This document shows, in pieces, positions 10,228-45,684 of a stretch of DNA of 64,000 bases. Origin of the DNA: a virus (lineage: Duplodnaviria > Caudoviricetes); the IMG/VR virus record IMGVR_UViG_3300043450_000376. One strand, given 5' to 3'. The notes under the pieces are model-generated. The model was not told the origin of the DNA. It searched no databases and was given only the letters and a program-made list of their open reading frames with translations. How positions within the stretch are numbered: position 1 is the first letter of the stretch; every line of letters starts with the position of its first letter. The translations under genes and the position numbers were made by a program.

Positions 10228-10231
10228 GGAG

Positions 10232-10360: not shown

Positions 10361-10525
10361 TTCTAGACCGGGTTATTTTGCAATTATTTATAAGTTATAG
10401 GTATAATAGAAATAGGCCCAAAAGCCCGGGCCCATGCCGACGGGGCATAGGTATTTATGGTGACCCCGCTCCGTGGGGATCCCCGGCCCCTGGAGAAATG
10501 CTCCTCTATTAGGGCCGCCAGAAAT

Positions 10526-10582
10526 TGTTAATAACTTTATGCAAAAAGATTGTCAGGAGTCATGGAAAAGTGGTATATTAGC
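10526..10582 (+). promoter_or_regulatory. class I promoter with no convincing downstream ORF
   Basis: TGTTAATAAC at 10526; TATATTAGC at 10574. Confidence 0.6.
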
Positions 10583-29228: not shown

Positions 29229-29951
29229 ATGAAACTTGGACACTGGTTTTGCGAAATGGTTGGAATTAAAATTAGATCGTTTTATTTAGGCGACCTATAT
29301 TTTACCATTACCAAAGATTCCCCTTACTATTCATCAGGCAATGATGTTTTAAACACCCTACATTTTAAATTTCTAGGTCTTTATTTTGCCAGTCGGCTAA
29401 AGAAGCGAAAAACTAAAGCTGGTTTTAGGAAAAATCAAAAATTAATTAAGATTTTTGAATCTACATGCGGAGTTATTGTTGGTAACTATCAAGTTAAAGA
29501 TAACTCTAGCAATACATATGATGATTGGGCTTTACCGGATGCAGTTGTTACCATACAGGATAAAAAATTAGTTGGCACACTAAGCGATTGTTACTGGCTT
29601 CTAGAGAAATCTGTAGTAGTTTGCGAAGAGTTCCCAAGTGCAGGCTATTCAATGACTGATAACATGTGGGTAGGCTGGTCTCATAGAGCAACTGCAGGTT
29701 TCAAAAAAGGTGATCGTCTTTTTGATGAAACATATAAACCAATCGAATCTGATTATACACAAGCTGAGTGGAAAGACTGGACAGTTAAATTTCAAAAGGC
29801 AATCAATAAAGCTGACGATCTTGAAAAGAAGTGGATTATTGAAGATGGTATGTCTTATGTAATACCGTTTAAACAAAGAGGGCCAAAGATTATTGAAACA
29901 AATCAGGAAGCTAAACAGGCAGCAATTAATTTTTCTAAATACGTATCATAA
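29229..29951 (+). CDS. hypothetical protein
   Basis: ORF track; W.GWSHRA..GF..GD motif. Confidence 0.7.
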   Translation: MKLGHWFCEMVGIKIRSFYLGDLYFTITKDSPYYSSGNDVLNTLHFKFLGLYFASRLKKRKTKAGFRKNQKLIKIFESTCGVIVGNYQVKDNSSNTYDDWALPDAVVTIQDKKLVGTLSDCYWLLEKSVVVCEEFPSAGYSMTDNMWVGWSHRATAGFKKGDRLFDETYKPIESDYTQAEWKDWTVKFQKAINKADDLEKKWIIEDGMSYVIPFKQRGPKIIETNQEAKQAAINFSKYVS

Positions 29952-30260: not shown

Positions 30261-31229
30261 ATGAAACAATATAAACTTTTCTCAATTGACGGTCGTCCAC
30301 TCGCAAACGAAATTTGCGAACATCTTTCAACCCTAACTGACTCTGATATTAGAGTCGGTAAATTTAAAATTGATCAATTCTCAGATGGAGAATTTAGTCC
30401 ACAGTTTTTAGAATCAATTAGAGACAAGTCTGTATTTTTAACAACTACTTTAACTAGTTCAGATGCTATTATTAAATTAGTACTTTCAATTGATGCAGCA
30501 AAGCGAGCATCTGCATCTGAAATTATTATAGTACTGCCATACCTTGCATATTCGCGACAAGATCGAAGAGAAGGCCATCGTGGTTCAATCGGCGGAAAGG
30601 CGATTGCCGATCTTATTAAAAACGCAGGTGCTGATAAAGCAATTCTATTTGATCTACACTCAGAACAGATTCAGGGTTTCTTTGATATGCCAGTTGAACA
30701 CATTCCTGGCTGGGTTGCATTTACTGATTATGTAAAAGACTTGGATCCAACTTGTGATTGGACAGTATGCTCGCCAGATGCCGGCGGTGTTAAACGAGCA
30801 AACCGTTTTTATCAGCACTTTGTTAAAACACATGAGACGGCAACCTTTTCAATGTTATCTAAACTAAGAGACAAGCCAAATTCAATTGAACGAATGGATC
30901 TGATTGGAGATGTTAATGGTCGATGCGTAATCTTAATTGATGATATGGTTGATACTGGCGGAACTCTTCTACTTGCAGCTAAACTGCTAAAAGAAGCAGG
31001 CGCGCTAAAGGTTCATGCAATCTGTACGCATGGAGTTTTATCTGGCCCTGCATATGACCGACTAAGCGGAGAAAATGGTCAATATCTAGATTCGTTAGTT
31101 ATTAGTACTTCAATTCCATCTAATTTTCACGATAAAATAAAAACCGTAAGCTGTGCTCAGCCCATTGCTAAAACTATTTTTGCAATGACTAGATCTGTAT
31201 CTGTAGCACAAACTCTATTACCACTATGA
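30261..31229 (+). CDS. prs: ribose-phosphate pyrophosphokinase (PRPP synthetase)
   Basis: FSDGE, PYLAYSRQDR, DLHSEQIQGFF, SPDAGGVKRA, IDDMVDTGGT, THGVLS. Confidence 0.95.
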   Translation: MKQYKLFSIDGRPLANEICEHLSTLTDSDIRVGKFKIDQFSDGEFSPQFLESIRDKSVFLTTTLTSSDAIIKLVLSIDAAKRASASEIIIVLPYLAYSRQDRREGHRGSIGGKAIADLIKNAGADKAILFDLHSEQIQGFFDMPVEHIPGWVAFTDYVKDLDPTCDWTVCSPDAGGVKRANRFYQHFVKTHETATFSMLSKLRDKPNSIERMDLIGDVNGRCVILIDDMVDTGGTLLLAAKLLKEAGALKVHAICTHGVLSGPAYDRLSGENGQYLDSLVISTSIPSNFHDKIKTVSCAQPIAKTIFAMTRSVSVAQTLLPL

Positions 31230-31960
31230 AGAAATTAATTTTTATCCTATGCTTTTTGCCAAGCTTGGCAGGAGCACAAACCCAAATCTATTCCCTAACT
31301 GGAATGTTAAATATTGGTAACCGTGCAGGTTATCTGGTCGGAACAAAGGCAGAATACAAATCAAAGGACACTGGCAAAATTGGTTTAGTTAGCAATGCAT
31401 CAGGTCAAATTCAATATGCATCAGTCAATGACGCGATGCTATTACAGAGAAGAGATATTAACCTTTCTGTGTATGGCTGGAAGACTCTGGATAAGGTACA
31501 GTCACTTATATTTTTTAGTGAAGGTGAACATTCATATACCAGAAAGGTTGAATTCAGGGTGACCGGAGGAGCTGGTTATAAAAAGGTTCTAGTTGATATT
31601 CCAGGTAAAAAGATTGAAGTTTCACAAGCAGTTACGACCGAGCAACTTCAATTAATAGATGGCAATCGTAGCTGGACCATTCGCAGTTCAACTAGAGGTA
31701 AACTTGTGTTGGGTACAGACACTAAATTAACAATCATTGCCACCATACAGCCGCCCCTTGCCTCTAATACTGGAGCAGACGTTAAGAACAATATGGTAGG
31801 TCGAGTTATTGCTCAATTGGAGCACCCATTATCAAAAAGTCTGTCATTTTCAGTTAGTAGCGATATAAACTATCAAACATATCAGTCTTGGGTTAAACCA
31901 GACGTTAAACCTTACGACGGAGTTATTCAGCTTGGCCTAATGTGGAGGCCGAATAAATAA
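31226..31960 (+). CDS. exported protein, probable DUF481-like outer-membrane beta-barrel
   Basis: Signal peptide; beta-strand pattern; EFRVTGGAGY. Confidence 0.55.
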   Translation: MKKLIFILCFLPSLAGAQTQIYSLTGMLNIGNRAGYLVGTKAEYKSKDTGKIGLVSNASGQIQYASVNDAMLLQRRDINLSVYGWKTLDKVQSLIFFSEGEHSYTRKVEFRVTGGAGYKKVLVDIPGKKIEVSQAVTTEQLQLIDGNRSWTIRSSTRGKLVLGTDTKLTIIATIQPPLASNTGADVKNNMVGRVIAQLEHPLSKSLSFSVSSDINYQTYQSWVKPDVKPYDGVIQLGLMWRPNK

Positions 31961-31966
31961 TCCTAT

Positions 31967-32581
31967 ATGACAACTGCCAGTCGACTAGAACATCCACGTA
32001 TTAAAGCATTTATTAATCACGTAAAGTCTGAATGTAAACGTACTGGAATTAGGGTCGAACTAAGAAACGTAAGATACTTAATGCTGGGTCACGGCATGAA
32101 GTGTTCGGGATATTTCGATGAAGCAAACCGCAAGTTAGTAGTTGCAATGCTAAATCCAGTTGCAGTTGAGGTCTTGGTCCATGAATTTGGTCACTTTACC
32201 CAATGGGACGAAAACATTCCAATTTGGAAAGAAGCCGGCTTTGCAATGGGTCATATTGAAGAGTGGCTAAACGGAAAAACTAAGCGCAGTATCGAAAAGT
32301 GGATGGCTCTATCCAGAGATCTTGAACTTGATAATGAAAAGCGTAGCGTTCAGCTAATCAAAGACTTTAACCTTCCAATTAATATAGAAAAATATACTAG
32401 ATGTGCTAATGCATATGTTCTTTTCTATAATTGGATGCTTACTTCAAGAAAATGGTGTAAGCCTGGCAATACCCCATACTCAAATAAAGCTGTAGTCGCA
32501 GCATGTTCCCCTAAATTCAATATGAGATACGATCAGCTCTCTGCAAAGATGAGATTGGCATTTGAAGAGTCAGGAATCTAA
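31967..32581 (+). CDS. hypothetical protein with HExxH zinc-metalloprotease motif
   Basis: VLVHEFGHF. Confidence 0.65.
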   Translation: MTTASRLEHPRIKAFINHVKSECKRTGIRVELRNVRYLMLGHGMKCSGYFDEANRKLVVAMLNPVAVEVLVHEFGHFTQWDENIPIWKEAGFAMGHIEEWLNGKTKRSIEKWMALSRDLELDNEKRSVQLIKDFNLPINIEKYTRCANAYVLFYNWMLTSRKWCKPGNTPYSNKAVVAACSPKFNMRYDQLSAKMRLAFEESGI

Positions 32582-32640
32582 AACCAAGTAACCCAATTAG
32601 GTATAATACCTTTATAATAAAAACACACAATACAATACAA

Positions 32641-32835
32641 ATGAAAAACGGAACAGTAAAATTCTTCAACGCTGAAAAAGGCTTTGGATTTATTAAAGAA
32701 GACAATGGACAAGAAATTTTTGTACATTCAACAGGTTTACAAGAAGACATTCGTGAGAATGACACAGTAACTTTTGACGTACAAGATGGTAAAAAGGGTT
32801 TAAACGCAGTAAACGTTAAACTAGTCCAAAACTAA
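32641..32835 (+). CDS. cspA: cold-shock protein
   Basis: GTVKFFNAEKGFGFI, IFVH. Confidence 0.95.
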   Translation: MKNGTVKFFNAEKGFGFIKEDNGQEIFVHSTGLQEDIRENDTVTFDVQDGKKGLNAVNVKLVQN

Positions 32836-32864
32836 AAACAAAACACAATAAAAAAACAACACAT

Positions 32865-33035
32865 ATGAAAAACTACGTAATCGTAATGCTTCTAGTTGCC
32901 GCAGTAGGAATTACTGCATGTGGAAATGGTTCGGCTAGTGCTGACGCCACTGCTGCTGACTCTACTCAAGTAGACTCAATGGTAGTCGCAACAGACTCAA
33001 CTGCAACTGTAGACACAGCCTCTACTACTAAGTAA
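32865..33035 (+). CDS. small lipoprotein (56 aa) with four D-(S/T)-(A/I/L/M/T/V) sequons
   Basis: Manual translation; lipobox ITAC at Cys19; DST, DSM, DST, DTA. Confidence 0.75.
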   Translation: MKNYVIVMLLVAAVGITACGNGSASADATAADSTQVDSMVVATDSTATVDTASTTK

Positions 33036-33060
33036 TCAAGAGTTAATATACTCGGAGTTA

Positions 33061-33090
33061 AAAGGGAAACTATTTGTTTCCCTTTTTTTT
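33061..33090 (+). terminator. intrinsic terminator
   Basis: AAAGGGAAAC/GTTTCCCTTT plus T-run. Confidence 0.85.
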
Positions 33091-33120
33091 GTTTCTGGCG
33101 TCAAGTAACACAAATAAACT

Positions 33121-33129
33121 AGATAAATA
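33121..33129 (+). promoter_or_regulatory. class III promoter AGATAAATA heading the 33-42 kb operon
   Basis: Directly after a terminator, upstream of gene 33153. Confidence 0.65.
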
Positions 33130-33152
33130 ATAAGAAAAGGTCTAGATTTAAA

Positions 33153-35084
33153 ATGAAACAGTGGCTAAAAACCCTCCTATTCGCCGTGCTGTGTCTCTCG
33201 GCAAGCTCAATTTACGCTCAAACCGGTCCTCCAGCTCCATCTTCGGGTGCTTGGGTCTTGATTGACACCAACTACACAGTTGGATCATCTCTGCTTGGTC
33301 AAACCAAAGCACGAATTACTTACAAAAATAATACCTCAACCCTAGTAACAGGTCTTCAATTTAGAGTATTCTATGATAAGACTGCATTTACTGGTGCTAC
33401 CGTCGCTGCAGTAACTTCAGCGTCAAACGAAGTTCTGTCGTATGTAACAGATTCAGTTAATGGATTTATTACAATTACGCTTGTTTATACAGGTTCAAGC
33501 AGCACATGGACACTAGCCGAAGGTGAAACTTTTGAAATTACATTTACCCATGCTGCAAACACTACATTCCAAGCACTAACTGCAATTTCAAACTTAACTT
33601 GGTCTGCAACTAGTGGAAACTCTTTCCCTCAGTTATTGGCAAAGCAGAATGGTACAGACGGAACGCTAAGCCAACACAACTATGGTGGTATCTTTGTAAG
33701 ACCATCTCTTAATTACCATGGTACATTTACCAACGTAACTGGTTCAGGTTCAAAGAATATTATTGTTCAACTACAGCAACGTCCAAAGACTGGTGGTACT
33801 TGGTCAACTATTAAAATGGATACGACGGCTGTATCTGGAGCATTTGCATTCAATGATGTAGTTGTCGATACTACTTACTTTAATGCACGATTATATGTTA
33901 AAGGTGATACCTTAACAGTAGGTAATACAATCTCTACAGCAGATGCTGCTAAAGTAAACCAATACGTATTAGGTCAAGCAACTCCAACCGGATTTGATTA
34001 CTATGCAGCTGACGTAAACTCAGATAATACAATTTCAATTACAGATGCTTATGGTATCTATGGTAGATTAGCTGGAAGATTTACAGCATGGCCAAACAGT
34101 ACAATGGATGTTAAATTCTTTACTGCGGCTCAATACGCAACCATCAATGGTTCATCTACAAACTATACTTCATCAATTGCAGGTGTAACTGATATTACAT
34201 TTAATATTGTCGCAGGTCAACCTGATTCTGTAACATTCTATGTATTAGGTAAAGGCGATGCAAATGGAACAGGATTCCATATGGCACGTGTAACCCCTAT
34301 TCAAATTATTAATCCTAATAATGCGCCAAACCATATTATCGATGTAACAACTGAATATGATAATGCTAATCAATTAGGAACAATTGAAGTAAACATGCCA
34401 ACTCTATCAGTTGAGGCTGGAAATTTAGTTAATGTTCCTGTTAAAATTTTAGCAACCAATACTCAAATCAGTGCTCTGCAATTAGCAATGAAATACGATC
34501 CAATTCTATTAGAATTTAAATCTCTTTCTGCTGAAGCTGGAGTAGCTCACTGGTTATCATTTGTAAATCCATCAGATGGAACAATCGAATGGGGAGCTTC
34601 TGACTTTACTACAACTAATCCACTAAGTGACGGGCAAACTGCAATTAATATTCAATTTAAAGCGTTAGTTCCTCAAAATCAATGGAATAAAAGCCCACTC
34701 TATGTAACTCGTAAATTTGCAGGTGTTGCTGGTACGCTTAGAGATTTAAATATTACACCAACTGATGGAATTATTCAGGTATTAATCGTTAATCCTGGAT
34801 TTGGCAATCAATTAATTGAAAACAAATTGATGCAAGTTAGATTAGCACCAAACCCAACTAGAGATCAGGTTGCAGTAACCTTTAATATTATAGAAGATGC
34901 AATGGTTAATCTTACATTTAGAGATCACCTAGGTCAACCTATTAAAACTTTAGTTAATCAGTTTATGCCAGCTGGAACCTATACCTACACTACAAATTTA
35001 GGTCATGTTCCCGATGGAATTTACTATGCAATTCTTTGGTCTGGCCAAAAAGCTGCATCAGCAAAGGAAATAGTTTTAAAGTAA
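33153..35084 (+). CDS. secreted cohesin/dockerin-like protein with a T9SS C-terminal sorting domain
   Basis: Signal peptide; two cohesin-like domains (GLQFRVFYD; ALQLAMKYDP); dockerin-like DVNSDNTISITD; CTD APNPTRDQVAVTF...GIYY. Confidence 0.8.
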   Translation: MKQWLKTLLFAVLCLSASSIYAQTGPPAPSSGAWVLIDTNYTVGSSLLGQTKARITYKNNTSTLVTGLQFRVFYDKTAFTGATVAAVTSASNEVLSYVTDSVNGFITITLVYTGSSSTWTLAEGETFEITFTHAANTTFQALTAISNLTWSATSGNSFPQLLAKQNGTDGTLSQHNYGGIFVRPSLNYHGTFTNVTGSGSKNIIVQLQQRPKTGGTWSTIKMDTTAVSGAFAFNDVVVDTTYFNARLYVKGDTLTVGNTISTADAAKVNQYVLGQATPTGFDYYAADVNSDNTISITDAYGIYGRLAGRFTAWPNSTMDVKFFTAAQYATINGSSTNYTSSIAGVTDITFNIVAGQPDSVTFYVLGKGDANGTGFHMARVTPIQIINPNNAPNHIIDVTTEYDNANQLGTIEVNMPTLSVEAGNLVNVPVKILATNTQISALQLAMKYDPILLEFKSLSAEAGVAHWLSFVNPSDGTIEWGASDFTTTNPLSDGQTAINIQFKALVPQNQWNKSPLYVTRKFAGVAGTLRDLNITPTDGIIQVLIVNPGFGNQLIENKLMQVRLAPNPTRDQVAVTFNIIEDAMVNLTFRDHLGQPIKTLVNQFMPAGTYTYTTNLGHVPDGIYYAILWSGQKAASAKEIVLK

Positions 35085-35110
35085 TTAAATAATAAAAAAA
35101 CAATTAAACA

Positions 35111-35434
35111 ATGTCTGAAGAAACAGAAAACGACGGCACTTGGTCAGGTCTTAAGAAGACCCTAATCGGAACAGTTTCAACTGTTGTGCTAGCAGGTGGA
35201 ACATACTTAACTACTACTCTTTTTGGTGGTGATGACAAAGAAGAAACTAAAACTGAACAGGCTGCACCGGCTCCTGTTATAGTTAATGTTCAACAAAATC
35301 AAGAGAATACTCAAAAACAGCAAAACAATGGTGGTACCACAACTATCATCAAAGAAAGAGTTATAGAGAAAGCTCCTGCAGCAGAGCCAGCCGCTCCTAA
35401 AAAAGAGGCTAAGAAAGAAGAAGATTCTTGGTAA
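35111..35434 (+). CDS. single-TM hypothetical protein
   Basis: ORF track; one hydrophobic helix. Confidence 0.7.
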   Translation: MSEETENDGTWSGLKKTLIGTVSTVVLAGGTYLTTTLFGGDDKEETKTEQAAPAPVIVNVQQNQENTQKQQNNGGTTTIIKERVIEKAPAAEPAAPKKEAKKEEDSW

Positions 35435-35457
35435 TTAAAAAAATAAAAACTATTAAC

Positions 35458-35748
35458 ATGGCTAAATTAGAAAAAACAAAACCAAATTTCTTTAAACGTA
35501 TGTTTATGGATGATAACGATATCAATGAAAAATCAATCGTAGGGTTCGGCGCGTTTGTAGTAATGTGTATTGCATTTGGGGTTGACATTTATACAGGAGT
35601 TAAAGGTATGCCTTTTGAAATTAATGAATTTATTTTTGATGGTTTTATGGTTATTACCTTAGGTGCATTTGGTATAGCATCAGTTGACAAATATCTAACT
35701 GGAAAGAATAAACCAGGTTCTTCTGACGAAGAAACTCCAGCAGAATAA
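35458..35748 (+). CDS. two-TM membrane protein (holin-like topology)
   Basis: Two hydrophobic helices; internal ATG chosen. Confidence 0.6.
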   Translation: MAKLEKTKPNFFKRMFMDDNDINEKSIVGFGAFVVMCIAFGVDIYTGVKGMPFEINEFIFDGFMVITLGAFGIASVDKYLTGKNKPGSSDEETPAE

Positions 35749-35762
35749 AAAAATTAAAACTT

Positions 35763-35867
35763 ATGAAGAAGGTATATTCTTTCTTTGAAGAATATTGGAA
35801 AATCCTTTTACTGGCAGCCATTTGGTTTGGTGGAATTGGATTTATCGCCTATAAACTTGGAATATGA
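35763..35867 (+). CDS. small membrane peptide (34 aa)
   Basis: Manual translation MKKVYSFFEEYWKILLLAAIWFGGIGFIAYKLGI; ATGA overlap with the next gene. Confidence 0.55.
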   Translation: MKKVYSFFEEYWKILLLAAIWFGGIGFIAYKLGI

Positions 35868-36577
35868 AAAAGTTAATCGTAATTTGCACAATGCTGCTAT
35901 TGGCGGTGGGTGTTCAAGCTCAAACAATTGGTTCAACTAAAACTGAAACCTATCAAGCTGATTTTGAAAAGAAGCAGTCAATAAACCTTGTTGCAAATTA
36001 CGATGATACTATTGTAATTCCTATCCAAGTATTAAAGATTGGTATTAACGAAGAGTTATACGAGATGTACCCTGAATTAAAGGATAATAGAGTAGGGCTT
36101 GGTGTTGCCAATATTGTTCTTGAATTTTTAGAATCAACTGACCGATTTAAATTCACAGAGGACAGGGAAGAGATTAAGCAAAAAATGATTGCTCAACAAA
36201 AAGCATCAGACAAAGGAGTCTCATCAAATACTATTCAAGTAAAAGGCAATGTTATTCTTGCTAAATACTTTGTTTATATCGAAGTTTATGATTTTGCAAT
36301 ATCAGAAGATGAAGAAATTCAAGTTTCTAGTGCAGAAGTTAAACAAAAAACTACAATTGGCCTTCAAGTAAGATTCGTAGACGCTGAAACAGGCGAAATT
36401 ATTACTGGCTCAGGTCTTGGTGAAGCCATTACTGTTAAGAAAGCAAGTCTATTGGATGGCGTTGATGAGGTTAAGTTTAACCAATCAACAATCGGTATAT
36501 CGACTAAGAAATCCCTTGAGACTGCTGCTTCACGTGTAGTGAGTAAGCTGATCAAAAAGGGAGTCTTTAGACGATGA
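35864..36577 (+). CDS. CsgG/HfaB-like (curli assembly/transport) fold protein
   Basis: Signal peptide; GLGVANIVLEFL...RF.F; GLQVRFVDAETGEII.GSG.G; STIGIS.KKSLE.A. Confidence 0.65.
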   Translation: MKKLIVICTMLLLAVGVQAQTIGSTKTETYQADFEKKQSINLVANYDDTIVIPIQVLKIGINEELYEMYPELKDNRVGLGVANIVLEFLESTDRFKFTEDREEIKQKMIAQQKASDKGVSSNTIQVKGNVILAKYFVYIEVYDFAISEDEEIQVSSAEVKQKTTIGLQVRFVDAETGEIITGSGLGEAITVKKASLLDGVDEVKFNQSTIGISTKKSLETAASRVVSKLIKKGVFRR

Positions 36578-38220
36578 GATCTCTACTCTTAATAATATTT
36601 TTATCTGCTTTTACTACTTCTGTAAAAGCTCAAAGCTACATATACCAATATGTAGATCCATGTACAAAGAATATTAAATTCGTATCTGTTCCGCTTAGTG
36701 GTGCAAATGTCGCCGTAACCTATTATGGCCAAGTTGGAACATTTAGTAATGCAGATTTTAGCAATGGTAATTTTATATCATGGTTAAATCAAACTTCTGG
36801 CTCAAATGCTGGTAAACCATGCGATCAGGCTACAACTCAAGCAGTTAACTCAACTAACTTAATCGTTACAAATAACATTATTTCAACCTTAACTAATATT
36901 ACATCAGTTTCAATGATGGCAGCAAGTCTTTCATCAAATGTTGCAGGGTCAGTCGGCGGTAATCTTGGAAATACTGTAAGCAATGGATCTTCCGGCGATG
37001 GTTCAGGAAACGGTAGCGGCGATGGAAAAAAGGACGATAAGAAAAATAATAGCGGAAATGGAAGCGGTAGCGGCAATAATAACAATAATTCTAATGGGTC
37101 CTCTGGTTCTAATGGGAATACTCAGTCTAGTGGTTCAACTGGATCAACAAATAATCAAGGAAATGGCTCATCTAATAACAACGGAGGAAATACAACAGGC
37201 TCTAGTGGAAATACTGGAAGCGGAAACACTGGATCAGGTTCAGGTTCTGGTCAAGCAGGTGGAAACCCTGCTTCAGGCTCGGGAGGAAGCGGTTCAGGTT
37301 CAAGTGGTTCAACTCAAGGAGGAGGTTCATCGTCTCAGCCGCCTGTAGGTAATACGGGATCCACTGGGTCAACTGGAACTGGCGGTAATGGTAACACTAA
37401 TGGAGGCGGAACTGGATCAGCTGGCGGAACAGGAAACACCACAGAAACAGGCGGAGCAACTCAATCTAGTTCAAGTAGTGGAAGCGGTGGAACTGCAAAC
37501 TCTGTATCAAATGCAGCAGAATCAACATCAAGCGGAGGCGGTAGTTCTAGCGGCGGAGGAAGTTCAAAAAATGGAGATAAAAACCGAGCAAGAACTGGTG
37601 CTCTTATTGGAACTGGAGATATTGTAGCTGTGCGCAGTGCAGAAGAGGGAGAAAAGGATCAATTTAAGTTTACAATGAGTATGACTAAGTCTAATACCAA
37701 AAACACCTTTGCTAGAGGATTCTTAGGAAACTTTACTACTCAAATTAATAATTCAAACGTTACGTTCTATGGCGCATGGACTCTACCTAAAAGTAAAACA
37801 ACTGTTATTGTTGCAAACTCATCAATGATAAATCCAGATAGAGATTTCTTTAATACAACAACACTACTTGCGTCAAAGAGATTTACAAAACTTTCACTTA
37901 TGGGCGGTCTTAACTTTACAGCGGGTGCAATTGGCGAAACTGGGTTTCAAAACTTATCAGCAGTCGGTGGTGGATTTTATATGTTTAATGCAGGTAAAAA
38001 AATAACAGCAACTCTCCTGGTACTTGGAGTTTATTCTCCATTTACACAATTCTATGAAGGAAATTGGTGGAGTTCAGGTCTATTGGTAGTTCCGTTTAGT
38101 TCATGGGATTATTCAATTACAAAGAAATTTAAATTTAATATAAGTTTCTCGGGAACTTATGAAATGAATAAAAATATGCTTAACTATCAGATCTTAACTG
38201 GTGGTAAAGTGATGCTCTAA
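36574..38220 (+). CDS. secreted protein with a long Gly/Ser/Asn/Thr low-complexity linker and a beta-barrel-like C-terminus
   Basis: Signal peptide; about 230 aa of G/S/N/T repeats; alternating beta strands at the C-terminus. Confidence 0.7.
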   Translation: MRSLLLIIFLSAFTTSVKAQSYIYQYVDPCTKNIKFVSVPLSGANVAVTYYGQVGTFSNADFSNGNFISWLNQTSGSNAGKPCDQATTQAVNSTNLIVTNNIISTLTNITSVSMMAASLSSNVAGSVGGNLGNTVSNGSSGDGSGNGSGDGKKDDKKNNSGNGSGSGNNNNNSNGSSGSNGNTQSSGSTGSTNNQGNGSSNNNGGNTTGSSGNTGSGNTGSGSGSGQAGGNPASGSGGSGSGSSGSTQGGGSSSQPPVGNTGSTGSTGTGGNGNTNGGGTGSAGGTGNTTETGGATQSSSSSGSGGTANSVSNAAESTSSGGGSSSGGGSSKNGDKNRARTGALIGTGDIVAVRSAEEGEKDQFKFTMSMTKSNTKNTFARGFLGNFTTQINNSNVTFYGAWTLPKSKTTVIVANSSMINPDRDFFNTTTLLASKRFTKLSLMGGLNFTAGAIGETGFQNLSAVGGGFYMFNAGKKITATLLVLGVYSPFTQFYEGNWWSSGLLVVPFSSWDYSITKKFKFNISFSGTYEMNKNMLNYQILTGGKVML

Positions 38221-38222
38221 TT

Positions 38223-39029
38223 ATGAAGAATTTATTTTTAATAAGTACGTTGATTTTTATATCAGTAAATGCATTTTCACAGGCAGTGCCTCCTCCGCCT
38301 CCACCGAATCCGCCTGCTCCAATGGAAAATGTTGGTCAAGTACAAAATGCAACTGGATTTGTTCAATCTAAATCGTTTGCTCCATCTGGGTCTATGGTTA
38401 AGCCTAGCCCATTTTTAGCAGGAGCTGATATGGCTTTTATATCAAATCCAACATTTGAAGGAGGTTTTAGAGCAGGCTTTTCATTAGGTTATGCTAAAAC
38501 CTCGACTAATGGATCAAAAACATTTGGCGGTAATGGAATTGCAACCTTTGATTTAACACAAAGATCTTTTAATATTTTTTATGGAAGAAATAAAAAAACC
38601 TATTCAGCATTTATATCAACATCATTTGCGCAAATAGGACTTGATTGCAGTTATGGTCCAGCTTTTACTGTATTGTTTAAAAGAAAAGCTTTCAACTATG
38701 GCTCAACTTTAGGTTGGAGCTTTATAGATGGAGCTACCTATAGAATAATGTCGCCAACTGCTGTTATTATAATTAATAAGCCAATGCAGATAGGAAAGAG
38801 AATTAAATACACACCGGAATTATTTGCAACCTTTGCCAATCCTTATTATAGTAGAGATGCAATGGCTTGGTCAAATGATTTAACAGTTAATGCAATCGTT
38901 GGAAACTCAATTGGTTTGCTAATAGGAAAATCATTTATTATGAATGTGGATTGGAGAGCAAACATAAATACAAATCCAAAGCTTGGCATAATGCACAACT
39001 TATTAATTGGAACCAACTATAAATTTTAA
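38223..39029 (+). CDS. secreted protein, probable beta-barrel, Pro-rich N-terminus
   Basis: Signal peptide; PPPPPPNPP; C-terminal Phe (TNYKF). Confidence 0.6.
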   Translation: MKNLFLISTLIFISVNAFSQAVPPPPPPNPPAPMENVGQVQNATGFVQSKSFAPSGSMVKPSPFLAGADMAFISNPTFEGGFRAGFSLGYAKTSTNGSKTFGGNGIATFDLTQRSFNIFYGRNKKTYSAFISTSFAQIGLDCSYGPAFTVLFKRKAFNYGSTLGWSFIDGATYRIMSPTAVIIINKPMQIGKRIKYTPELFATFANPYYSRDAMAWSNDLTVNAIVGNSIGLLIGKSFIMNVDWRANINTNPKLGIMHNLLIGTNYKF

Positions 39030-39042
39030 AAAATCAAATACT

Positions 39043-39489
39043 ATGAAAAAGTTATTATTAGTTTTATCAACCCTTACTCTACTTTCTTTTACTGAACCTT
39101 GTTATAAAGTAACAAGCGTTATCGCAAGTGCAGATGCTCCTGATATGAAAAAAGAAAGAGTAATCTTTGGAATTAAACAATTAGCAGAAGAAATTGTTTC
39201 AGAAAAATATACAATTTGCAGCGACGGTTCGCCAATTACAGTTGATCTTTTTTCAATAGAGGCTCCAACTACTGGCGTTTCAATCGGACCTTTTACTGCA
39301 ATTAAGAAAGAAACTATTATTAAAGTTAAAATTACCAAAGATGGTAAAGAATATATTGGAGAAGGCACAGCTAAAACCACGGTTAAATCTACCTTAATTG
39401 AATTAAAAGACGAGAATCTTCCATTTGAAAAAACAACTTTCGCTAGTGCAGTAAAGAAAAGTTTATTAGACGCAGTTAGCAAAATGTAA
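39043..39489 (+). CDS. exported hypothetical protein
   Basis: Signal peptide; C-terminal EKTTFASAVKKSL resembles the end of the CsgG-like protein. Confidence 0.65.
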   Translation: MKKLLLVLSTLTLLSFTEPCYKVTSVIASADAPDMKKERVIFGIKQLAEEIVSEKYTICSDGSPITVDLFSIEAPTTGVSIGPFTAIKKETIIKVKITKDGKEYIGEGTAKTTVKSTLIELKDENLPFEKTTFASAVKKSLLDAVSKM

Positions 39490-39491
39490 TT

Positions 39492-41804
39492 ATGTTTAAA
39501 AAACCACTCTACATATTATTAGGACTTGTCCTATTCTTAATTCCAGCACTAGGTTTTGCGCAAGCAACAACAGTTAATCTTGGAACAAGTAGTAGTGGGG
39601 TTGTATCAGTTAGCTTTAATACATGGACCAAAGTTGATCCAAACATATCAATAACAGCAAATGGTACAATTACTGGTTTTAGGGTTCAAATATCTCAAGC
39701 CTATACAAGTGGTGCAAGCGGAGATCAATTAAGATCTACCGCAACTCTGCCATCGGGAATATCAGTTGCTGCATTTAATACAACTACGGGAGTCTTAGCA
39801 TTTAGCGGTTCCACCACTGCCTCTAATTGGCAAACTGTATTAAGTGGAGTGGAGTTTAGATCAACTACTTCAACCTGCTATGCGTTACAAAGAAGAATTA
39901 CTTTTGTAGCAGGTACAGTATTTTATAACCCATTAACCGAACACTTCTATGAATATGTTTCAGGTACTACATCTTGGACCAATTCCTATACGGCGGCATC
40001 TGCTAAATCATATTTTGGCCGAGCTGGATATTTAGCAACAATGATGTCAGAAGCAGAAAATAATTTTGTTTGGAAGTTAATGGCAAATGATGCTTGGATG
40101 GGAGCGTCTGATGACTATAACTATATTAATACCGCAAAGGGTTCAACCGTTTATGCTAGTCAATCGGCAGCTGAAGGTAAATGGCACTGGGTTACAGGTC
40201 CAGAAAAAGGTCAAAACTTTTCAAACGGAAATACCCCAAGCACAACCTTAGTATCGGGTATGTATCATAAATGGGCAGGCGGCGAGCCTAATGGTACATC
40301 AGAAGCTTTTGGTCAATTCTATTCTTCAAATAATGGCCAATGGAATGACTTAGCCAATAGCACTCTACCTGGTTATATTTGTGAATATGGAGATATGCCT
40401 GGAGATATTACATCAAGTACTACAATATTAACCCGAAGTATTGAGATTAGCGGAGCATCGAGCGGTTATATTTCAGGTGGAGATATTAATGTTTGTTCAG
40501 GTTCAAATAGTACAACCCTAACTCTTAATAGTTATACTGGAAGTATTGTAAGATGGGAATCTTCTTTTGATAACTTCTTTACTGCAGGTACTACAATTTC
40601 AAGTACGTCCGCTAGCATCACAGTTACTAACTTAACTAAGACTACATATTATAGAGCAATTGTAAATTCAACTAGCCCAACTACTTGTTCAGGTTTAGCA
40701 ACATCGAGTAGCGCTCTATCAGTTAAGCCAACAACCGCTGGCTCGGTATTCGCAGCAAACAATTCAATTTGTGCAGGCGGTCAAGCTGAACTAACCTTAT
40801 CTGGTCAACAGGGTAATATTAATAAATGGCAAAGGTCAACTGATAATGTTAACTGGACTGATATTACAAATACGACTGCAAGTTTAACTCAAACTCTTAA
40901 TACAGCAGGTACCTATTATTATAGAGCACAGGTGCAAACACCAAACTGTGGAAGTGCAGTTAATACTAGTGCTAAGACCATTACCGTTACATCGGGAACT
41001 CCGCCAGTCGGAGGATCAGTTTCATCTGCAGTTCATGCAACCGCAACCAATTCAGGTACGCTAACGCTTAGTGGACATACCGGAACTATTGTTAAATGGC
41101 AACGTTCGGCAAATGATGGAGTAACGTGGACAGATATTACAAATACCTCTACGACCAATTCATATTCAAATCAAACCGATGGTGTTTTGTATAGAGCTCA
41201 ATTACAAAATGGAACATGTGGATTTACATTTTCAACTGCAGGAATAATTACAGTTGCACCATTTACATATTCCGGAACTGTTTACAATTCAGAGGTAATC
41301 GTTTTTCCAAACGTTGAAGTTAAACTATATTCTAAACTTAAATCTGATCTAACCTATTCTTTTAATAGTTCGTCTACTACTAATGCAAGCGGAGTATACT
41401 CATTCACAACTTCTCTAAGTGTAAACAAATATGATTTTAGAGTGTCAATTGAATCTATTACAACTACAATTCCAACATCGACTGATGCTCAAACATTTAC
41501 CAATAAGATTTTAACACAAACATTTAACTCAAAGGATTACTATAGAATTGACGCAAATAATAATAACTCATTATCAATTACAGATGTGTTCTTAATTTAT
41601 TCTAAAGTTAACTCTACTATTTTAACTTGGCCAAATTCAACACCAGACTATAGAATATTCTCGGCAACCCAATGGTCTACTATTAATAGTGGAACAGCTA
41701 ACATGAAATCTACTTTACCTGGACAACAATCGCTGCTAATAGATGGGCCAGTTTCAGGTGGAACAACTAACTTTTATATAGTTAGAACTGGAATTCGCCA
41801 GTAA
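39492..41804 (+). CDS. secreted adhesin-like protein: C-type lectin domain, Ig-like repeats, dockerin-like C-terminus
   Basis: GYLAT...EN.F.W...W.GA...W.W...W..GEPN...WND...YICEY; repeated KWQRS.D...WTDI; DANNNNSLSITD. Confidence 0.8.
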   Translation: MFKKPLYILLGLVLFLIPALGFAQATTVNLGTSSSGVVSVSFNTWTKVDPNISITANGTITGFRVQISQAYTSGASGDQLRSTATLPSGISVAAFNTTTGVLAFSGSTTASNWQTVLSGVEFRSTTSTCYALQRRITFVAGTVFYNPLTEHFYEYVSGTTSWTNSYTAASAKSYFGRAGYLATMMSEAENNFVWKLMANDAWMGASDDYNYINTAKGSTVYASQSAAEGKWHWVTGPEKGQNFSNGNTPSTTLVSGMYHKWAGGEPNGTSEAFGQFYSSNNGQWNDLANSTLPGYICEYGDMPGDITSSTTILTRSIEISGASSGYISGGDINVCSGSNSTTLTLNSYTGSIVRWESSFDNFFTAGTTISSTSASITVTNLTKTTYYRAIVNSTSPTTCSGLATSSSALSVKPTTAGSVFAANNSICAGGQAELTLSGQQGNINKWQRSTDNVNWTDITNTTASLTQTLNTAGTYYYRAQVQTPNCGSAVNTSAKTITVTSGTPPVGGSVSSAVHATATNSGTLTLSGHTGTIVKWQRSANDGVTWTDITNTSTTNSYSNQTDGVLYRAQLQNGTCGFTFSTAGIITVAPFTYSGTVYNSEVIVFPNVEVKLYSKLKSDLTYSFNSSSTTNASGVYSFTTSLSVNKYDFRVSIESITTTIPTSTDAQTFTNKILTQTFNSKDYYRIDANNNNSLSITDVFLIYSKVNSTILTWPNSTPDYRIFSATQWSTINSGTANMKSTLPGQQSLLIDGPVSGGTTNFYIVRTGIRQ

Positions 41805-41849
41805 TCCAATCCAATTTTCATAGTATAATAACTAAAATAATCAATCGTA

Positions 41850-42077
41850 ATGATAGATTTAAAGGAAGTATCTATTGCCTGGTTTAGATCGTTTAACCCA
41901 ACTCCTGAACAAAGGGCAACAGCAGACGAACGACTCGCTATTTGTGAAGCCTGTCCAGAATCAAAAGTTAATCAATTAAATATTCACTATTGCGGTGCAT
42001 GCGGCTGTCCTCTTAACAAGAAAATTTTCTCACCAAAGGGGCCAAGTGCATGTCCTCAGCAAAAATGGCCCCAATAA
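41850..42077 (+). CDS. small Cys-rich metal-binding protein (DUF6171-like)
   Basis: RLAICEACP...CGACGCPL..K...CP..KW. Confidence 0.7.
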   Translation: MIDLKEVSIAWFRSFNPTPEQRATADERLAICEACPESKVNQLNIHYCGACGCPLNKKIFSPKGPSACPQQKWPQ

Positions 42078-42094
42078 GGGTATATTAATCGTAA

Positions 42095-42322
42095 ATGGCA
42101 AAGTTAAACATACAGTTATTCAAAGAAACAATGGACGAGTTTAAAGACAAGATCGAAAATGATCCGTTTAGAACTGGCGAAATTCTTCGTGATCAATATC
42201 CCGATGAAATTTCAGAAATGTTAGAATTGCTATTTTGGGCAAAGGGCGCTAGGGAAGTAACATTTAAAGTTTCCAAAGATTCCGATGACCTACTTAAAGT
42301 TGAAATCTTAAACAGAAAATAA
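42095..42322 (+). CDS. hypothetical protein
   Basis: ORF track. Confidence 0.65.
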   Translation: MAKLNIQLFKETMDEFKDKIENDPFRTGEILRDQYPDEISEMLELLFWAKGAREVTFKVSKDSDDLLKVEILNRK

Positions 42323-42323
42323 A

Positions 42324-42530
42324 ATGCCACCAGAATTTTACACAGAAGCAGACATTGAAAATGCTCAAGCAAACGCACCAATAGATTACAATAAAGTATT
42401 TAGGGGTTCAACTTATACCGAAACCGAATTAGGTAAATTGTTACTTGAAATTTGGGAAAACCGTAATTGGTTTAGTACAAAGGATATTGATGCGATACGT
42501 AATCAATTAAAAGAAGATAGGAAATTATGA
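42324..42530 (+). CDS. hypothetical protein
   Basis: ORF track. Confidence 0.65.
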   Translation: MPPEFYTEADIENAQANAPIDYNKVFRGSTYTETELGKLLLEIWENRNWFSTKDIDAIRNQLKEDRKL

Positions 42531-42979
42531 TTAGAATTTATTTAGATGATGTACGAACTCCAGTTGAAACTGAATGGGTAGTAGTCCGAAATTATGAAGA
42601 GTTTGTACATTTAGTTAAAGAAACTGGGTTAGAGAATATCGAAGTAATTTCTCTTGACCACGACCTAGGTGATTCGGCTATGAGTGAATACTTTAATAAC
42701 GTAAGTCCTAATTATATTTTAGATTACACGCATATTAATGAGAAAACTGGATATGACTGTGCTAAATGGTTAGTTAACGAGTTTTATGATAGGAATCCAA
42801 AGTGGAGTGACTTATCACGAGACGTAAAGCGAGGTAAGCCTTTTCAATTTCCACTAGTCTATACTCACTCAGCTAATCCAATCGGCAGTGCCAATATCAT
42901 GGGTTATATTAATAACTTCTTTATGAATGAGGCTCAAGCCCAAACTTGTGTACGAGTAACTATTACTCACACAGTATAA
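42527..42979 (+). CDS. cyclic-phosphate-processing receiver-domain protein
   Basis: IYLDDVRTP, SLDHDLG, TGYD..KWL, HSANP. Confidence 0.8.
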   Translation: MIRIYLDDVRTPVETEWVVVRNYEEFVHLVKETGLENIEVISLDHDLGDSAMSEYFNNVSPNYILDYTHINEKTGYDCAKWLVNEFYDRNPKWSDLSRDVKRGKPFQFPLVYTHSANPIGSANIMGYINNFFMNEAQAQTCVRVTITHTV

Positions 42980-45012: not shown

Positions 45013-45684
45013 ATGAGAAACGAATTTGAAAAATACGCGATGAGTAAGCATGGCATTTCTTCACTGAATATGCACTACCATCAAAAACAGATTGAGTCGT
45101 CAATGACTCCTTATATTTTAGAAGAGCGCGAATTACGTGCAACTCAAATGGATATTTTTTCCAGATTAATGATGGAAAGATTAATTTGGGTAGCCGGGCC
45201 AGTCAACGATCATATGTCGACTATTGTTCAAGCTCAGCTAATGTTTTTGGATTCAGTTGATGGATTAGATATTACAATGCATATTGATAGTCCAGGCGGA
45301 AGCGTTAAGAGTGGTCTTTCAATGGTAGATGTAATGGACTATATTAACTGCGATATCAAAACAGTTAATACTGGAATGGCTGCATCAATGGGATCAGTGT
45401 TGTTAGGAGCAGGAACAAAAGGAAAGCGCTCCTCACTAAAACACTCAACTACAATGTTGCATCAGTCTTCAGGCGGTTTTAGCGGAAATATCCAAGATGC
45501 TGAAATCGATATGCAAGAGTGGCAAAAGGTAAATGCTGAGTTGTTTGTTTTACTAGGTGGATATTGTGATAAAGATCCAGAACAGGTAAAACGGGATGCA
45601 ACTCGAGACTTTTGGTTAAATGCAGAAGAGGCCAAGGCATATGGAATTATTGATGAAGTAATTACAAAAAAGCCTAGAAAATAA
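45013..45684 (+). CDS. clpP: ATP-dependent Clp protease proteolytic subunit
   Basis: MDIFSRL, IDSPGGSV, GMAASMGSVLL, MLHQ, RDFWLNAEEAKAYGIID. Confidence 0.95.
   Translation: MRNEFEKYAMSKHGISSLNMHYHQKQIESSMTPYILEERELRATQMDIFSRLMMERLIWVAGPVNDHMSTIVQAQLMFLDSVDGLDITMHIDSPGGSVKSGLSMVDVMDYINCDIKTVNTGMAASMGSVLLGAGTKGKRSSLKHSTTMLHQSSGGFSGNIQDAEIDMQEWQKVNAELFVLLGGYCDKDPEQVKRDATRDFWLNAEEAKAYGIIDEVITKKPRK

Follow-up and report, generated by a model that had tools for sequence, protein, structure and literature searches.

The closest published cases to the locus described here are the csgG/csgF clusters of pelagimyophages and the T9SS cargo of "Cryophage". T4-like pelagimyophages (the HTVC008M group) carry a 'curli-like' csgG/csgF cluster, with 'sibling capture' aggregation and improved uptake as its suggested roles (Zaragoza-Solas et al. 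2020, PMC7029224). Cryophage encodes T9SS cargo in variable islands, comprising an endoglucanase, a GH39 protein and a PA14 protein (Bellas et al. 2020, PMC7468147). The window analyzed here, a 64,000-nucleotide stretch of DNA from a large phage of Flavobacterium-type bacteria, contains a gene block with features of each. As in the pelagimyophages, a large aquatic myophage has a small operon that includes a CsgG-family gene and lies outside the virion module (PMC7029224). The pelagimyophage genes are recognizable csgG and csgF near alphaproteobacterial ones (PMC7029224), whereas the CsgG-fold protein of the window (D) scores below the Pfam CsgG threshold, bears polar hairpins, and comes with a short paralogue (G) and no CsgF match. 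The T9SS cohesin cargo, the lectin proteins, and the 12-strand barrels of the block are a further difference. Shared with Cryophage are Bacteroidota phage genes that end in a T9SS type-A sorting domain, with secretion by the host presumed, and T9SS-cargo genes that differ between phage variants (PMC7468147). The cargo in the window (A) differs in being a conserved cohesin scaffold within a fixed multi-gene envelope block.

Nine ORFs occupy positions 33122–41804 of the window as a single, tightly packed block of ~8.7 kb, with intergenic distances of −7 to +26 nt. All features below are on the plus strand. A terminator-like hairpin at 33060–33086, an 11-bp stem followed by a T-run, closes the upstream unit and is the sole plus-strand terminator-like site in 32400–42400; the gene before it encodes a 56-aa PG1828-family lipoprotein. 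The promoter-like motif GATAAATAA lies at 33122–33130, 23 nt 5′ of the A start codon. Just past the last gene, H, a promoter-like motif of a different class, AGTATAATA (41822–41830), marks the start of the next unit, 20 nt ahead of an ATG at 41850. The hairpin and GATAAATAA upstream and AGTATAATA downstream set the limits of the block, and the packed operon that the sequence-only reading described is confirmed, with a promoter-like motif at its head. Neighbors in the window are topoisomerase II, PRPP synthetase, MazG, a Tad6-like protein, ClpP, and tRNAs.

Both motifs exceed expectation. GATAAATAA has 9 copies in the window compared to 2.1 expected, a count reached in 0 of 100 shuffles, and the eight plus-strand copies each lie 20–35 nt ahead of a start codon. 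For AGTATAATA, 13 copies were counted where 1.4 would be expected, and every one is on the plus strand. In the nearest relative, a 118-kb contig, the GATAAATAA-type promoter-like motif has 11 forward and 0 reverse copies. A 254-kb relative has the motif ATAAATAA ahead of its A homologue and of its tail-sheath homologue. In the cultured Flavobacterium phage immuto, the motif ATATTTAT lies ahead of the cassette genes and likewise of those for the terminase, tail sheath, tube, baseplate hub, and a virion structural protein. The genes that share GATAAATAA within the window are without known function, and the window itself does not show timing. The 'late' label given to the operon earlier has indirect support from two relatives, where virion genes too are headed by the promoter-type motif of the cassette, and a late-type promoter for the block is plausible.

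The core A-B-D-E-G-H is syntenic in ~80 fetched viral contigs, so the possibility that the genes would not be syntenic in relatives, raised in the sequence-only reading, was not borne out. Conservation within the block is highest for D; 289 relatives of it were found, identity is 67–97% over 80 viral loci, and marine contigs retain the block even where D identity falls to 38%. G is present in 74 of 81 loci. The block also occurs in immuto, and the four immuto records were the only matches to D by tblastn (E ≤ 1e-3) in a 50,697-record phage collection. Bacterial genomes are essentially without it: 185,579 species genomes gave 2 matches, both of them MAG contigs with the whole cassette and one also with a tail-sheath homologue. 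The immuto cassette, gp013–gp019, lies at 10.5–16.4 kb and the virion genes at 119–159 kb, and no PHROG structural matches were obtained for the block proteins. Peptidoglycan-binding or endolysin-like genes adjoin the block directly downstream in several relatives, which could indicate lysis and counts against an envelope role. A further point against such a role is that simple lectin display does not explain the conserved D/E/G/B core.

A (643 aa; 33153–35084) consists of a signal peptide, a cohesin, a middle module, a second cohesin, and a T9SS type-A C-terminal sorting domain. When the domains were scanned singly, the cohesins scored 24.3 and 32.2 bits (GA 24.1) and Por_Secre_tail scored 27.6 bits (GA 27). 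The middle module (approximately residues 165–345) combines a beta-sandwich with a dockerin-like Ca-loop, scoring 21.7 bits as Dockerin_1, slightly below the GA of 22.9, with just one canonical Ca-loop. Thus, the two cohesins and sorting domain first read from the sequence clear their thresholds, but the dockerin-like segment falls short. Por_Secre_tail is found in 16 of 16 A homologues (best E 8e-12) and Cohesin in 15 of 16. Alignment of these homologues shows that PNP and G..Y of the sorting domain are invariant, as are D287, V288, N289, and D298 of the Ca-loop.

H (770 aa; 39492–41804) has a signal peptide, an N-domain, a C-type lectin, Ig-like (Ig_7) repeats, and a C-terminal module. Lectin_C (26.6 bits, GA 22.6) and Ig_7 (33.7 bits, GA 27.3) both pass in single-domain scans, in agreement with the original C-type lectin/Ig call. 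The sugar-binding motifs EPN265 and WND284 are intact, and their spacing is 18–20 residues in 12 of 16 H homologues. The C terminus is a beta-sandwich plus dockerin-like module that is also present in A, with 181 aligned residues at 33% identity (E 1e-15); the homology proposed before is real, but its ~110-aa extent was too short. This module is the sole conserved part of the H homologues. Their heads differ (Lectin_C in 9, Laminin_G_3 in 2, SdrD_B in 2, and GEVED in 1 of 16), a swap that had been missed. A T9SS sorting domain was searched for in H and not detected. H has no recognized outer-membrane export signal that would account for its reaching the surface, which speaks against an envelope role. 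As in the cellulosome, two cohesins lie on one exported protein, and a dockerin-like Ca-loop segment is found on A and on H, the latter with a variable functional head. The dockerin-like part differs, since it joins a single canonical loop to a beta-sandwich and scores under the Pfam threshold; no enzymes are attached, and the putative anchoring is by T9SS and not SLH/sortase. Cohesin-dockerin binding in this block is a candidate interaction.

D (237 aa; 35864–36577) is a signal peptide followed by a CsgG-fold domain. Its predicted structure (pLDDT 80.5) has CsgG as its best match (Foldseek E 3e-8), and it aligns with E. coli CsgG (PDB 4uv3, 6l7a) at Z 13.5–13.7 and rmsd ~3 Å over 172–192 residues (~190 residues at Z 13.5). 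The CsgG relatives PelC, LptE, and TraT were also compared. PelC and LptE give Z 8–10, and TraT gives Z 8.0, close to background. The D family profile matches PDB CsgG with E 8e-4, and the invariant YPEL, which contains the conserved YP motif, falls on the CsgG constriction loop in that alignment. The counterparts of the CsgG transmembrane-barrel hairpins are shorter and charged in D; they are ~30% D/E/K/R with charged tips, and neither face is hydrophobic. The fold upholds the CsgG-like assignment, but the secretion pore suggested with it is not supported: the hairpins that would enter the membrane carry charge and lack an amphipathic pattern, which makes a lipid-embedded pore improbable for D. 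Many D relatives are lipoproteins with a lipobox Cys, which is absent from the window D and from immuto D. G (148 aa; 39043–39489) has a signal peptide and a short CsgG/LptE-like domain. Comparison of the two family profiles (hhalign probability 95.8%, E 6.9e-9, 115 columns) shows G and D to be paralogues, G being the shorter. An invariant C20 lies right behind its signal peptide, and most homologues have a second Cys.

E (548 aa; 36574–38220) comprises a signal peptide, a conserved N-domain, a disordered linker, and a 12-stranded beta-barrel. Homologue alignment identifies an invariant C30/C83 pair and a long helix in the N-domain. The Gly/Ser/Asn/Thr linker is ~215 aa, and the model is disordered over 120–339. 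The 12 strands span 343–547 (pLDDT 70–84), and Foldseek matches the barrel to NanC/KdgM (TM by target 0.70–0.73), FapF, NalP, and COG4313, as well as to autotransporter barrels. F (268 aa; 38223–39029) has a signal peptide, a Pro-rich stretch, and a beta-barrel ending in NYKF; its Atlas model has TM 0.65–0.73 to 12-strand barrel families, plus a 474-aa viral cluster. F is rare, found in 3 of 81 loci by tblastn, with one more locus added from blastp gene maps. Both C termini end in an OMP-type hydrophobic residue. The models support the barrel-like calls made for E and F from the sequence, with both as 12-stranded outer-membrane barrels, and a weak profile match joins the F and E barrels (hhalign 66%, E 6e-5). 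This paralogy, like the protein G and its relation to D, was missed in the sequence-only reading. E shares a helical periplasmic N-domain, a disordered linker, and a barrel with FapF, the Pseudomonas functional-amyloid exporter, and a 12-stranded barrel with the NanC/KdgM porins. E has no sequence similarity to either, and the block has no Fap or curli subunit genes. Compared to FapF, the E linker is far longer (several hundred residues in some homologues), and E has an extra small beta-domain with the conserved Cys pair.

The three small membrane proteins noted from the outset were all found. B (107 aa; 35111–35434) has an acidic N terminus, one TM segment, and a Lys/Glu/Pro/Ala-rich tail predicted to be periplasmic; it is present in 79 of 81 loci with 46–76% identity. 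C (~96 aa; 35458–35748) has two TM segments (residues 34–58 and 68–86 in the 106-aa reading); its ATG is at 35458, and the ORF opens at a TTG at 35428. Its place is not fixed among the loci that have it, which are only 16 of 81. A 34-aa single-TM peptide (35763–35867), whose stop overlaps the D start (ATGA), is shared with no more than the two closest relatives, where it ends exactly at the D start. The other six of the nine products (A, D, E, F, G, and H) have predicted cleavable Sec signal peptides with AQ/SQ/GQ endings that are conserved in homologue alignments. Together with the three TM proteins and the conserved A sorting domain, these signals bear out the earlier view that the products are exported and are not virion parts.

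The most likely explanation is that the block re-dresses the host cell envelope late in infection, because all nine products are predicted to go to membranes, the periplasm, or the surface. The fuller proposal, to which we give about even odds, is that the phage encodes a host-envelope module that the infected Bacteroidota cell makes and that goes to its envelope and not to virions. The block would probably be transcribed from a late-type promoter. Sec would carry A across the inner membrane and the host T9SS would take it across the outer one, and it would stay on or near the surface. H would dock via its C-terminal module onto A or the barrel complex, with its sugar-binding head swapped between phages. 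B, C, and the 34-aa peptide would form the inner-membrane part of the phage's own envelope complex, D and G would lie at the periplasmic face of the outer membrane (as lipoproteins in many relatives), and the E/F barrels would be inserted by BAM. The complex of these proteins would anchor the adhesin parts or help to export them.

Four other explanations were weighed. CsgG-CsgF, FapF, and PelC-PelB are periplasmic rings or plugs under or within a barrel. The conserved core of D, G, E/F, and B might similarly be a phage-made outer-membrane conduit that exports unfolded polypeptide or polysaccharide, or imports nutrients late in infection, with A and H as substrates or accessories. The proximity of D to CsgG, then PelC and LptE (Z 8–10), the alignment of its YPEL with the constriction loop, the resemblance of E to FapF, including the periplasmic helical domain and disordered linker before a 12-strand barrel, and to the NanC/KdgM oligosaccharide porins, and the like interpretation of the pelagimyophage clusters (PMC7029224) all favor this idea. 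It is nonetheless unlikely: the block has no CsgA/B-like, FapC-like, or polysaccharide-synthesis gene and no CsgE or CsgF family match, the D hairpins are not amphipathic, and the barrel likeness is generic among 12-stranded barrels. The module might instead serve exclusion and not adhesion, with TraT, Llp, and Cor as precedents; phage surface or outer-membrane proteins would mask the receptor or block DNA entry, shielding the infected cell from superinfection or progeny from loss on debris. TraT, a decameric lipoprotein that acts in surface exclusion, belongs to the D fold family, although its match (Z 8.0) is near background and weak compared to CsgG. Variable H heads would be expected if they track host surface glycans, but exclusion genes are usually small and early, and we judge this role distinctly unlikely. 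The Cryophage authors raised a similar idea for their T9SS cargo (PMC7468147).

To our knowledge, spanins are rarely recognizable in Bacteroidota phages, and the block could instead be lysis machinery that replaces them by outer-membrane disruption, with B as the inner-membrane arm and D/G as the outer-membrane arm. The late-type promoter, products in the inner membrane, periplasm, and outer membrane, the lipobox Cys of many D relatives, and the peptidoglycan-binding or endolysin-like genes directly 3′ in several relatives are consistent with this role. It has little probability, since lectins, cohesins, T9SS cargo, and stable BAM-inserted barrels are foreign to known lysis systems, no endolysin adjoins the block in the window, the window and immuto D proteins lack the lipobox, and ~8.7 kb far exceeds any known spanin or disruptin locus. 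Virion parts such as fibers or decoration proteins are scarcely credible. Their promoter motif is common to virion genes in relatives, and lectin and Ig-like domains are frequent in such proteins, but virions assemble in the cytoplasm, which cannot be reconciled with cleavable signal peptides, a T9SS sorting domain, outer-membrane barrels, and TM peptides, the immuto block is >100 kb from the virion module, and the PHROG structural search gave no match.

Aggregation, receptor masking, and grazer avoidance, named as purposes of the block in the sequence-only reading, are speculation. If the block does re-dress the host envelope, the infected cell or its debris would be coated with phage-chosen lectins, and this coat would either attach it to glycans on the cells or particles nearby or hide glycan receptors.

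The 64-kb window is phage DNA. Its ORFs lie nearly all on the plus strand, 24 tRNA genes are present, and the gene content includes topoisomerase II subunits, RNA ligase, PRPP synthetase, MazG, ClpP, and a Tad6-like protein. No recognizable virion gene was found within the window. An IMG/VR fragment of 118 kb, rated 46% complete, is the nearest relative. More distant relatives reach 254-308 kb, which indicates that the window belongs to a probable jumbo phage. Among cultured phages, Flavobacterium phage vB_FspM_immuto (160 kb, Baltic), which infects Flavobacterium sp. LMO8, is the closest. Nine plus-strand ORFs fill positions 33153-41804 with intergenic spacings of -7 to +26 nt. In order, they encode a cohesin/T9SS protein (A, 643 aa), two small membrane proteins (B, 107 aa, and C, ~96 aa), a 34-aa peptide, a CsgG-fold protein (D, 237 aa), two predicted outer-membrane barrels (E, 548 aa, and F, 268 aa), a short relative of D (G, 148 aa), and a lectin/Ig-like protein (H, 770 aa). 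ATGA overlaps occur at two junctions, 34-aa peptide/D and D/E. A PHROGs search gave no match for any cassette protein, and an NCBIfam search of the same proteins returned only sub-threshold noise. In a megablast search of 50,697 phage records, the block as a whole had no match, so relatives exist at the protein level only.

Genes outside the block were also annotated. A 240-aa protein at 29229-29951 (plus strand) matches Tad6, the Pfam type I Thoeris inhibitor family (E 4e-17, 63 bits versus GA 27), lies behind a copy of the motif AGTATAATA, and is likely an anti-defence gene product. A ClpP protease gene (E 1e-56; 45013-45684, plus strand) sits inside the tRNA array, and a cREC_REC (cyclic-phosphate processing receiver) domain protein (E 2e-21; 42527-42979, plus strand) is encoded shortly 3' of the cassette. 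Four plus-strand genes are located directly 5' of the cassette, within 31226-33035. Their products are a 244-aa protein with a signal peptide, a 204-aa protein carrying the metallopeptidase motif HEFGH, a cold-shock-like protein of 64 aa, and a lipoprotein of the PG1828 family (56 aa, E 1.5e-9). Except for the cold-shock-like gene, these are kept in L002 and L003, the closest two relatives, and these upstream genes may encode further lineage-specific envelope proteins.

The boundaries of the block are marked by sequence signals. A terminator-like hairpin at 33060-33086, the sole plus-strand one in the region, lies directly 5' of the block, and the 9-mer GATAAATAA is located at 33122, the position at which the sequence-only reading had started a late operon. 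This motif occurs 9 times in the window versus 2.1 expected, and eight of the occurrences precede plus-strand start codons at a distance of 20-35 nt. The contig of the nearest relative carries 11 forward and 0 reverse copies. Besides the cassette, GATAAATAA precedes seven unknown genes in the window that have no PHROG function and matched nothing in the phage collection by tblastn. AGTATAATA forms a separate motif class (13 copies versus 1.4 expected) found 5' of topoisomerase, the Tad6-like gene, the tRNA blocks, others, and the gene directly after H (41822). The third class, TGTTAATAACTTT, has 9 copies versus 0 expected, all within the first 10.5 kb and its small genes. These three strand-specific promoter-like classes span 56-10538 for TGTTAATAACTTT, and the ranges 6847-59635 and 7307-63555 for AGTATAATA and GATAAATAA; together they look like an early/middle/late programme. 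The upstream hairpin, GATAAATAA at 33122, and the motif of another class at 41822 define the block as a discrete unit with its own putative promoter class.

The timing of expression was approached through the relatives. A tail sheath was not detectable in the 118-kb fragment of the nearest relative. Immuto has ATATTTAT 5' of its cassette genes, and the motif is also found at a distance of 20-40 nt 5' of the genes for terminase, tail sheath, tail tube, baseplate hub, and a virion structural protein. The motif itself is common, and its presence before both gene sets is only suggestive of shared timing. In a 254-kb relative, ATAAATAA precedes the A homologue by 24 nt and the tail-sheath homologue by 31 nt. 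Late expression of the block is therefore a reasonable but indirect reading of motifs that cassette and virion genes have in common. The proposed late operon stands as a packed unit with its own promoter-like motif, and late timing is suggested by the motif sharing in immuto and the 254-kb relative.

The genes run A-B-D-E-G, with H placed ahead of A or behind G, in about 80 fetched viral loci, and the order recurs in marine contigs in which the identity of D is just 38%. One genome from each of 185,579 prokaryotic species was scanned with a narrower D alignment, which gave 2 matches, both MAG contigs with the whole cassette. These are L087 (CAIWBA010000291.1, 254 kb, labeled 'uncultured Bacteroidetes') and L088 (RFPL01000028.1, labeled 'Sphingomonadaceae'). 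L087 additionally encodes a tail-sheath homologue (203.6 kb). Both are phage contigs that were probably mis-binned. The ~80 viral loci, the conserved order in divergent marine contigs, and the phage-like nature of the two bacterial-scan matches show that the block is phage-specific and old within its phage group. The sequence-only reading had allowed that the genes might not be syntenic in relatives; across the viral loci they are. In several relatives (L016:296-1117, L031:14659-15489, L035:15615-16445, and L075:14400-15607), the cassette is directly flanked by a gene whose start resembles peptidoglycan-binding or endolysin proteins; the cassette in the window has no such neighbor.

Protein A has a signal peptide and two cohesin domains (PF00963), scoring 24.3 bits (residues 54-147) and 32.2 bits (residues 412-506) versus GA 24.1 in a domain-wise scan. 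Cohesin was present in 15 of 16 A homologues. Assignment to T9SS type A took a ~75-aa C-terminal profile match plus an N-terminal Sec signal. The C terminus of A matches Por_Secre_tail (PF18962, the T9SS type-A sorting domain) with 27.6 bits as a domain versus GA 27, and 23.4 bits over the whole protein. All 16 homologues carry this domain (best E 8e-12), and PNP and G..Y are invariant in the family alignment. The two cohesins and the sorting domain first read from the sequence are thus confirmed by Pfam scores over GA for the cohesins and at GA for the sorting domain, and by their retention in the homologues. A and H align over 181 residues with 33% identity (E 1e-15), which establishes the common module that had been noticed between them. 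The module is a beta-sandwich with one canonical, invariant Ca-loop, D-x-N-x-D...D, followed by W-P-N-S; the repeat before the loop is degenerate. The two tandem Ca-binding F-hand repeats of a type I dockerin were not found in the A/H module. Dockerin_1 (PF00404) scored 21.7 bits on A, below GA 22.9, one of 16 A homologues reached E 1e-3, and the same profile gave no match in H. The dockerin-like repeat of the earlier description is retained as one invariant loop, but it falls below the Pfam threshold and lacks the second repeat. Joint complex prediction of cohesin 1, cohesin 2, and the H C-terminal module gave a median of 0.64, compared to 0.59 for a control with cohesin 2 replaced, and speaks neither for nor against binding.

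The C-type lectin and Ig-like domains first read in H were confirmed. Lectin_C (PF00059) scored 26.6 bits versus GA 22.6 in the domain-wise scan, and Ig_7 repeats are also above threshold. EPN and WND are the Ca/sugar-binding motifs of mannose-type C-type lectins; they are intact in H at 265 and 284, and 12 of 16 homologues have both. Only the C-terminal module is conserved among H homologues, and the heads are exchanged (Lectin_C, Laminin_G_3, SdrD_B, GEVED, and Ig_7). No T9SS sorting domain was recognizable in H. In immuto and its close kin (L001, the immuto locus, 6599-8423), A is split over two genes: gp014 encodes cohesin 1 plus the module, and gp015 encodes cohesin 2 plus the sorting domain with its own signal peptide. 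The immuto lectin gene, gp013, is upstream rather than downstream.

D is the most conserved gene (67-97% identity across 80 loci), and its family is small: a search of 1.8 billion proteins gave 246 representatives at E <= 1e-3. D itself scores 19.1 bits against CsgG (PF03783), below GA 20.8. Relatives at ~30% identity exceed the Pfam threshold with 35.9-45.8 bits; they are mostly lipoproteins, and some are fused to Ser/Thr kinases or caspases. CsgG is the top match of the D AlphaFold model (pLDDT 80.5), with a Foldseek E of 3e-8 and VIA values of Z 13.5-13.7 and rmsd 2.9-3.2 A over 172-192 residues. The VIA runners-up are PelC, LptE, FlgT, and TraT at Z 8-10.5, the next family scoring 10.5. 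The D family profile matched Escherichia coli CsgG in the PDB (E 8e-4), and an invariant YPEL aligns on the CsgG constriction loop. CsgG forms a nonameric ring in which two amphipathic beta-hairpins per subunit build a 36-strand transmembrane barrel. The hairpins of D are shorter than those of CsgG and charged. In the monomer model, 7 of 20 residues at the tip of hairpin 1 (residues 145-164) are charged, and both faces are hydrophilic by simple hydropathy (-0.85 and -0.66). Mean hairpin charge in the D family is ~30%, compared to 14% for CsgG TM1, which has one hydrophobic face. The cleavage site of the window D (...AVGVQAQ) has no Cys and hence no lipobox, and many relatives have L-x-G-C or F-S-C. 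The shorter charged hairpins, the missing hydrophobic face, and the missing lipobox lead us to file D as a predicted CsgG-fold protein and not to call it a pore. Thus, the fold of the CsgG-like protein in the earlier description stands, but the modeled hairpins argue against a secretion pore. G, which that description left out, matches D by family profile (hhalign 95.8%, E 6.9e-9) and on this comparison is a short paralogue of D. The G family profile also matched ribosomal protein S1 in the PDB (residues 414-470, E 3e-4; NCBIfam S1, E 0.003); given the D/G profile match, an S1-like assignment was set aside as probably spurious.

In E, a conserved N-domain, which contains a long helix and two invariant cysteines, is followed by a disordered Gly/Ser/Asn/Thr linker, a barrel, and an OMP-type C terminus. 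The linker is ~215 aa in the window and ranges from a few tens to several hundred residues among homologues. The modeled barrel has 12 strands (residues 343-547, pLDDT 70-84) with a TM by target of 0.70-0.73 to NanC/KdgM, and it also resembles the amyloid exporter FapF and autotransporter translocators. The succession of helical domain, disordered linker, and 12-strand barrel is FapF-like. F, present in few relatives, is a second barrel; its Atlas model has a TM of 0.65-0.73 to 12-strand families, and its C-terminal residue is F. BLASTP gave no match between E and F, which are linked by a weak profile match and an Atlas structural match only, and Pfam and NCBIfam gave no family at E 0.1 for either. 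Both proteins combine a signal peptide, 12 modeled strands, and a hydrophobic/aromatic C terminus, the features of an outer-membrane barrel, and models with TM 0.65-0.73 to known families uphold the earlier barrel-like calls. The three small membrane proteins were also found as described. B is predicted to span the membrane once, N-in, with a charged tail in the periplasm. Two TM segments are present in C, and the 34-aa peptide completes the set; both C and this peptide are lineage-specific. Many relatives encode, between B and D or just 3' of D, a ~120-aa protein without a signal peptide and with a conserved ...VKVEDKNRFY... (L002:9524-9883, L004:9517-9876, L031:10724-11071, and others). This protein is absent from the window, and C and the 34-aa peptide occupy that place.

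These data firmly identify the block as an exported host-envelope module. The alternative that its products are virion parts was rejected on the signal peptides, the sorting domain, and the barrels. The sequence-only interpretation is partly supported, in its exported envelope module and synteny but not in its CsgG pore. Lectin display is the best model of the block. The host T9SS would export the cohesin scaffold A, the head-swappable lectin H would use the docking module it has in common with A, and a phage-made outer-membrane complex of D, G, and E, tied to B, would anchor or assist both. The weak points of the display model are the predicted cohesin-dockerin contact, the absence of an export signal in H, and the need for D/G/E, for which the model does not account.

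A rival explanation is that the block is a conduit for a polymer or solute, like CsgG, FapF, or PelBC. The fold of D and the architecture of E carry these resemblances, and the charged hairpins of D speak against a CsgG-type pore. We did not detect Pfam or NCBIfam matches to CsgA/CsgB or CsgE/CsgF in the scanned ORFs, a search that small divergent partners could escape. The block could also be an outer-membrane lysis device. In a two-component spanin, adjacent or embedded genes of a lysis cassette encode an inner-membrane protein of type II topology, with a coiled coil in the periplasm, and a small lipoprotein of the outer membrane. B has the predicted topology of a single-pass, N-in protein, and neither a small lipoprotein partner nor an endolysin is adjacent to it in the window. 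An exclusion or receptor-masking device is a further rival, one that overlaps the display model. More elaborate, and in our judgment unlikely, is a self-contained phage apparatus for secretion and display that would join two routes and make the infected cell a glycan-sticky trap. The host T9SS would deliver scaffold A by one route. By the other, a new kind of phage outer-membrane complex would export or anchor H, which has no sorting domain, and H would plug into A. This complex would place a D/G pair of CsgG-fold rings with polar hairpins beneath the FapF-like tethered 12-strand barrel of E, with B as the tie to the inner membrane. The sticky cell would gather fresh hosts ('sibling capture') or neutralize receptor-bearing debris at burst.

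Single phage genes alter host surfaces through O-antigen modification, Llp, Cor, and TraT-like proteins, and phage-encoded envelope and secretion modules are known. We did not find a description of the Flavobacterium-phage block in the literature; immuto, cohesin, and lectin all go unmentioned in the 2020 Baltic Flavobacterium phage paper. Reports of lone T9SS cargo or csgG/csgF genes in phages are few. 'Cryophage' encodes a T9SS cargo (PMC7468147), and pelagimyophages carry csgG/csgF clusters of unknown function for which 'sibling capture' was proposed (PMC7029224). Here the genes form a fixed multi-gene block, conserved in hundreds of large Bacteroidota phage contigs of lake and marine origin, that combines the host T9SS, phage outer-membrane proteins, and swappable lectins. 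It also offers a modeled CsgG-fold protein that is apparently not a membrane pore and, judged by sequence, a candidate natural cohesin/dockerin-like pair outside cellulosomes. The block is widespread and multi-component, and its role can be addressed directly in culture with the pair of phage immuto and its host, Flavobacterium sp. LMO8. Flavobacteria are key degraders of algal polymers. If the block makes infected cells sticky or masks their receptors, it would affect the aggregation of Flavobacteria on particles, the finding of hosts by progeny in dilute water, and carbon sinking.
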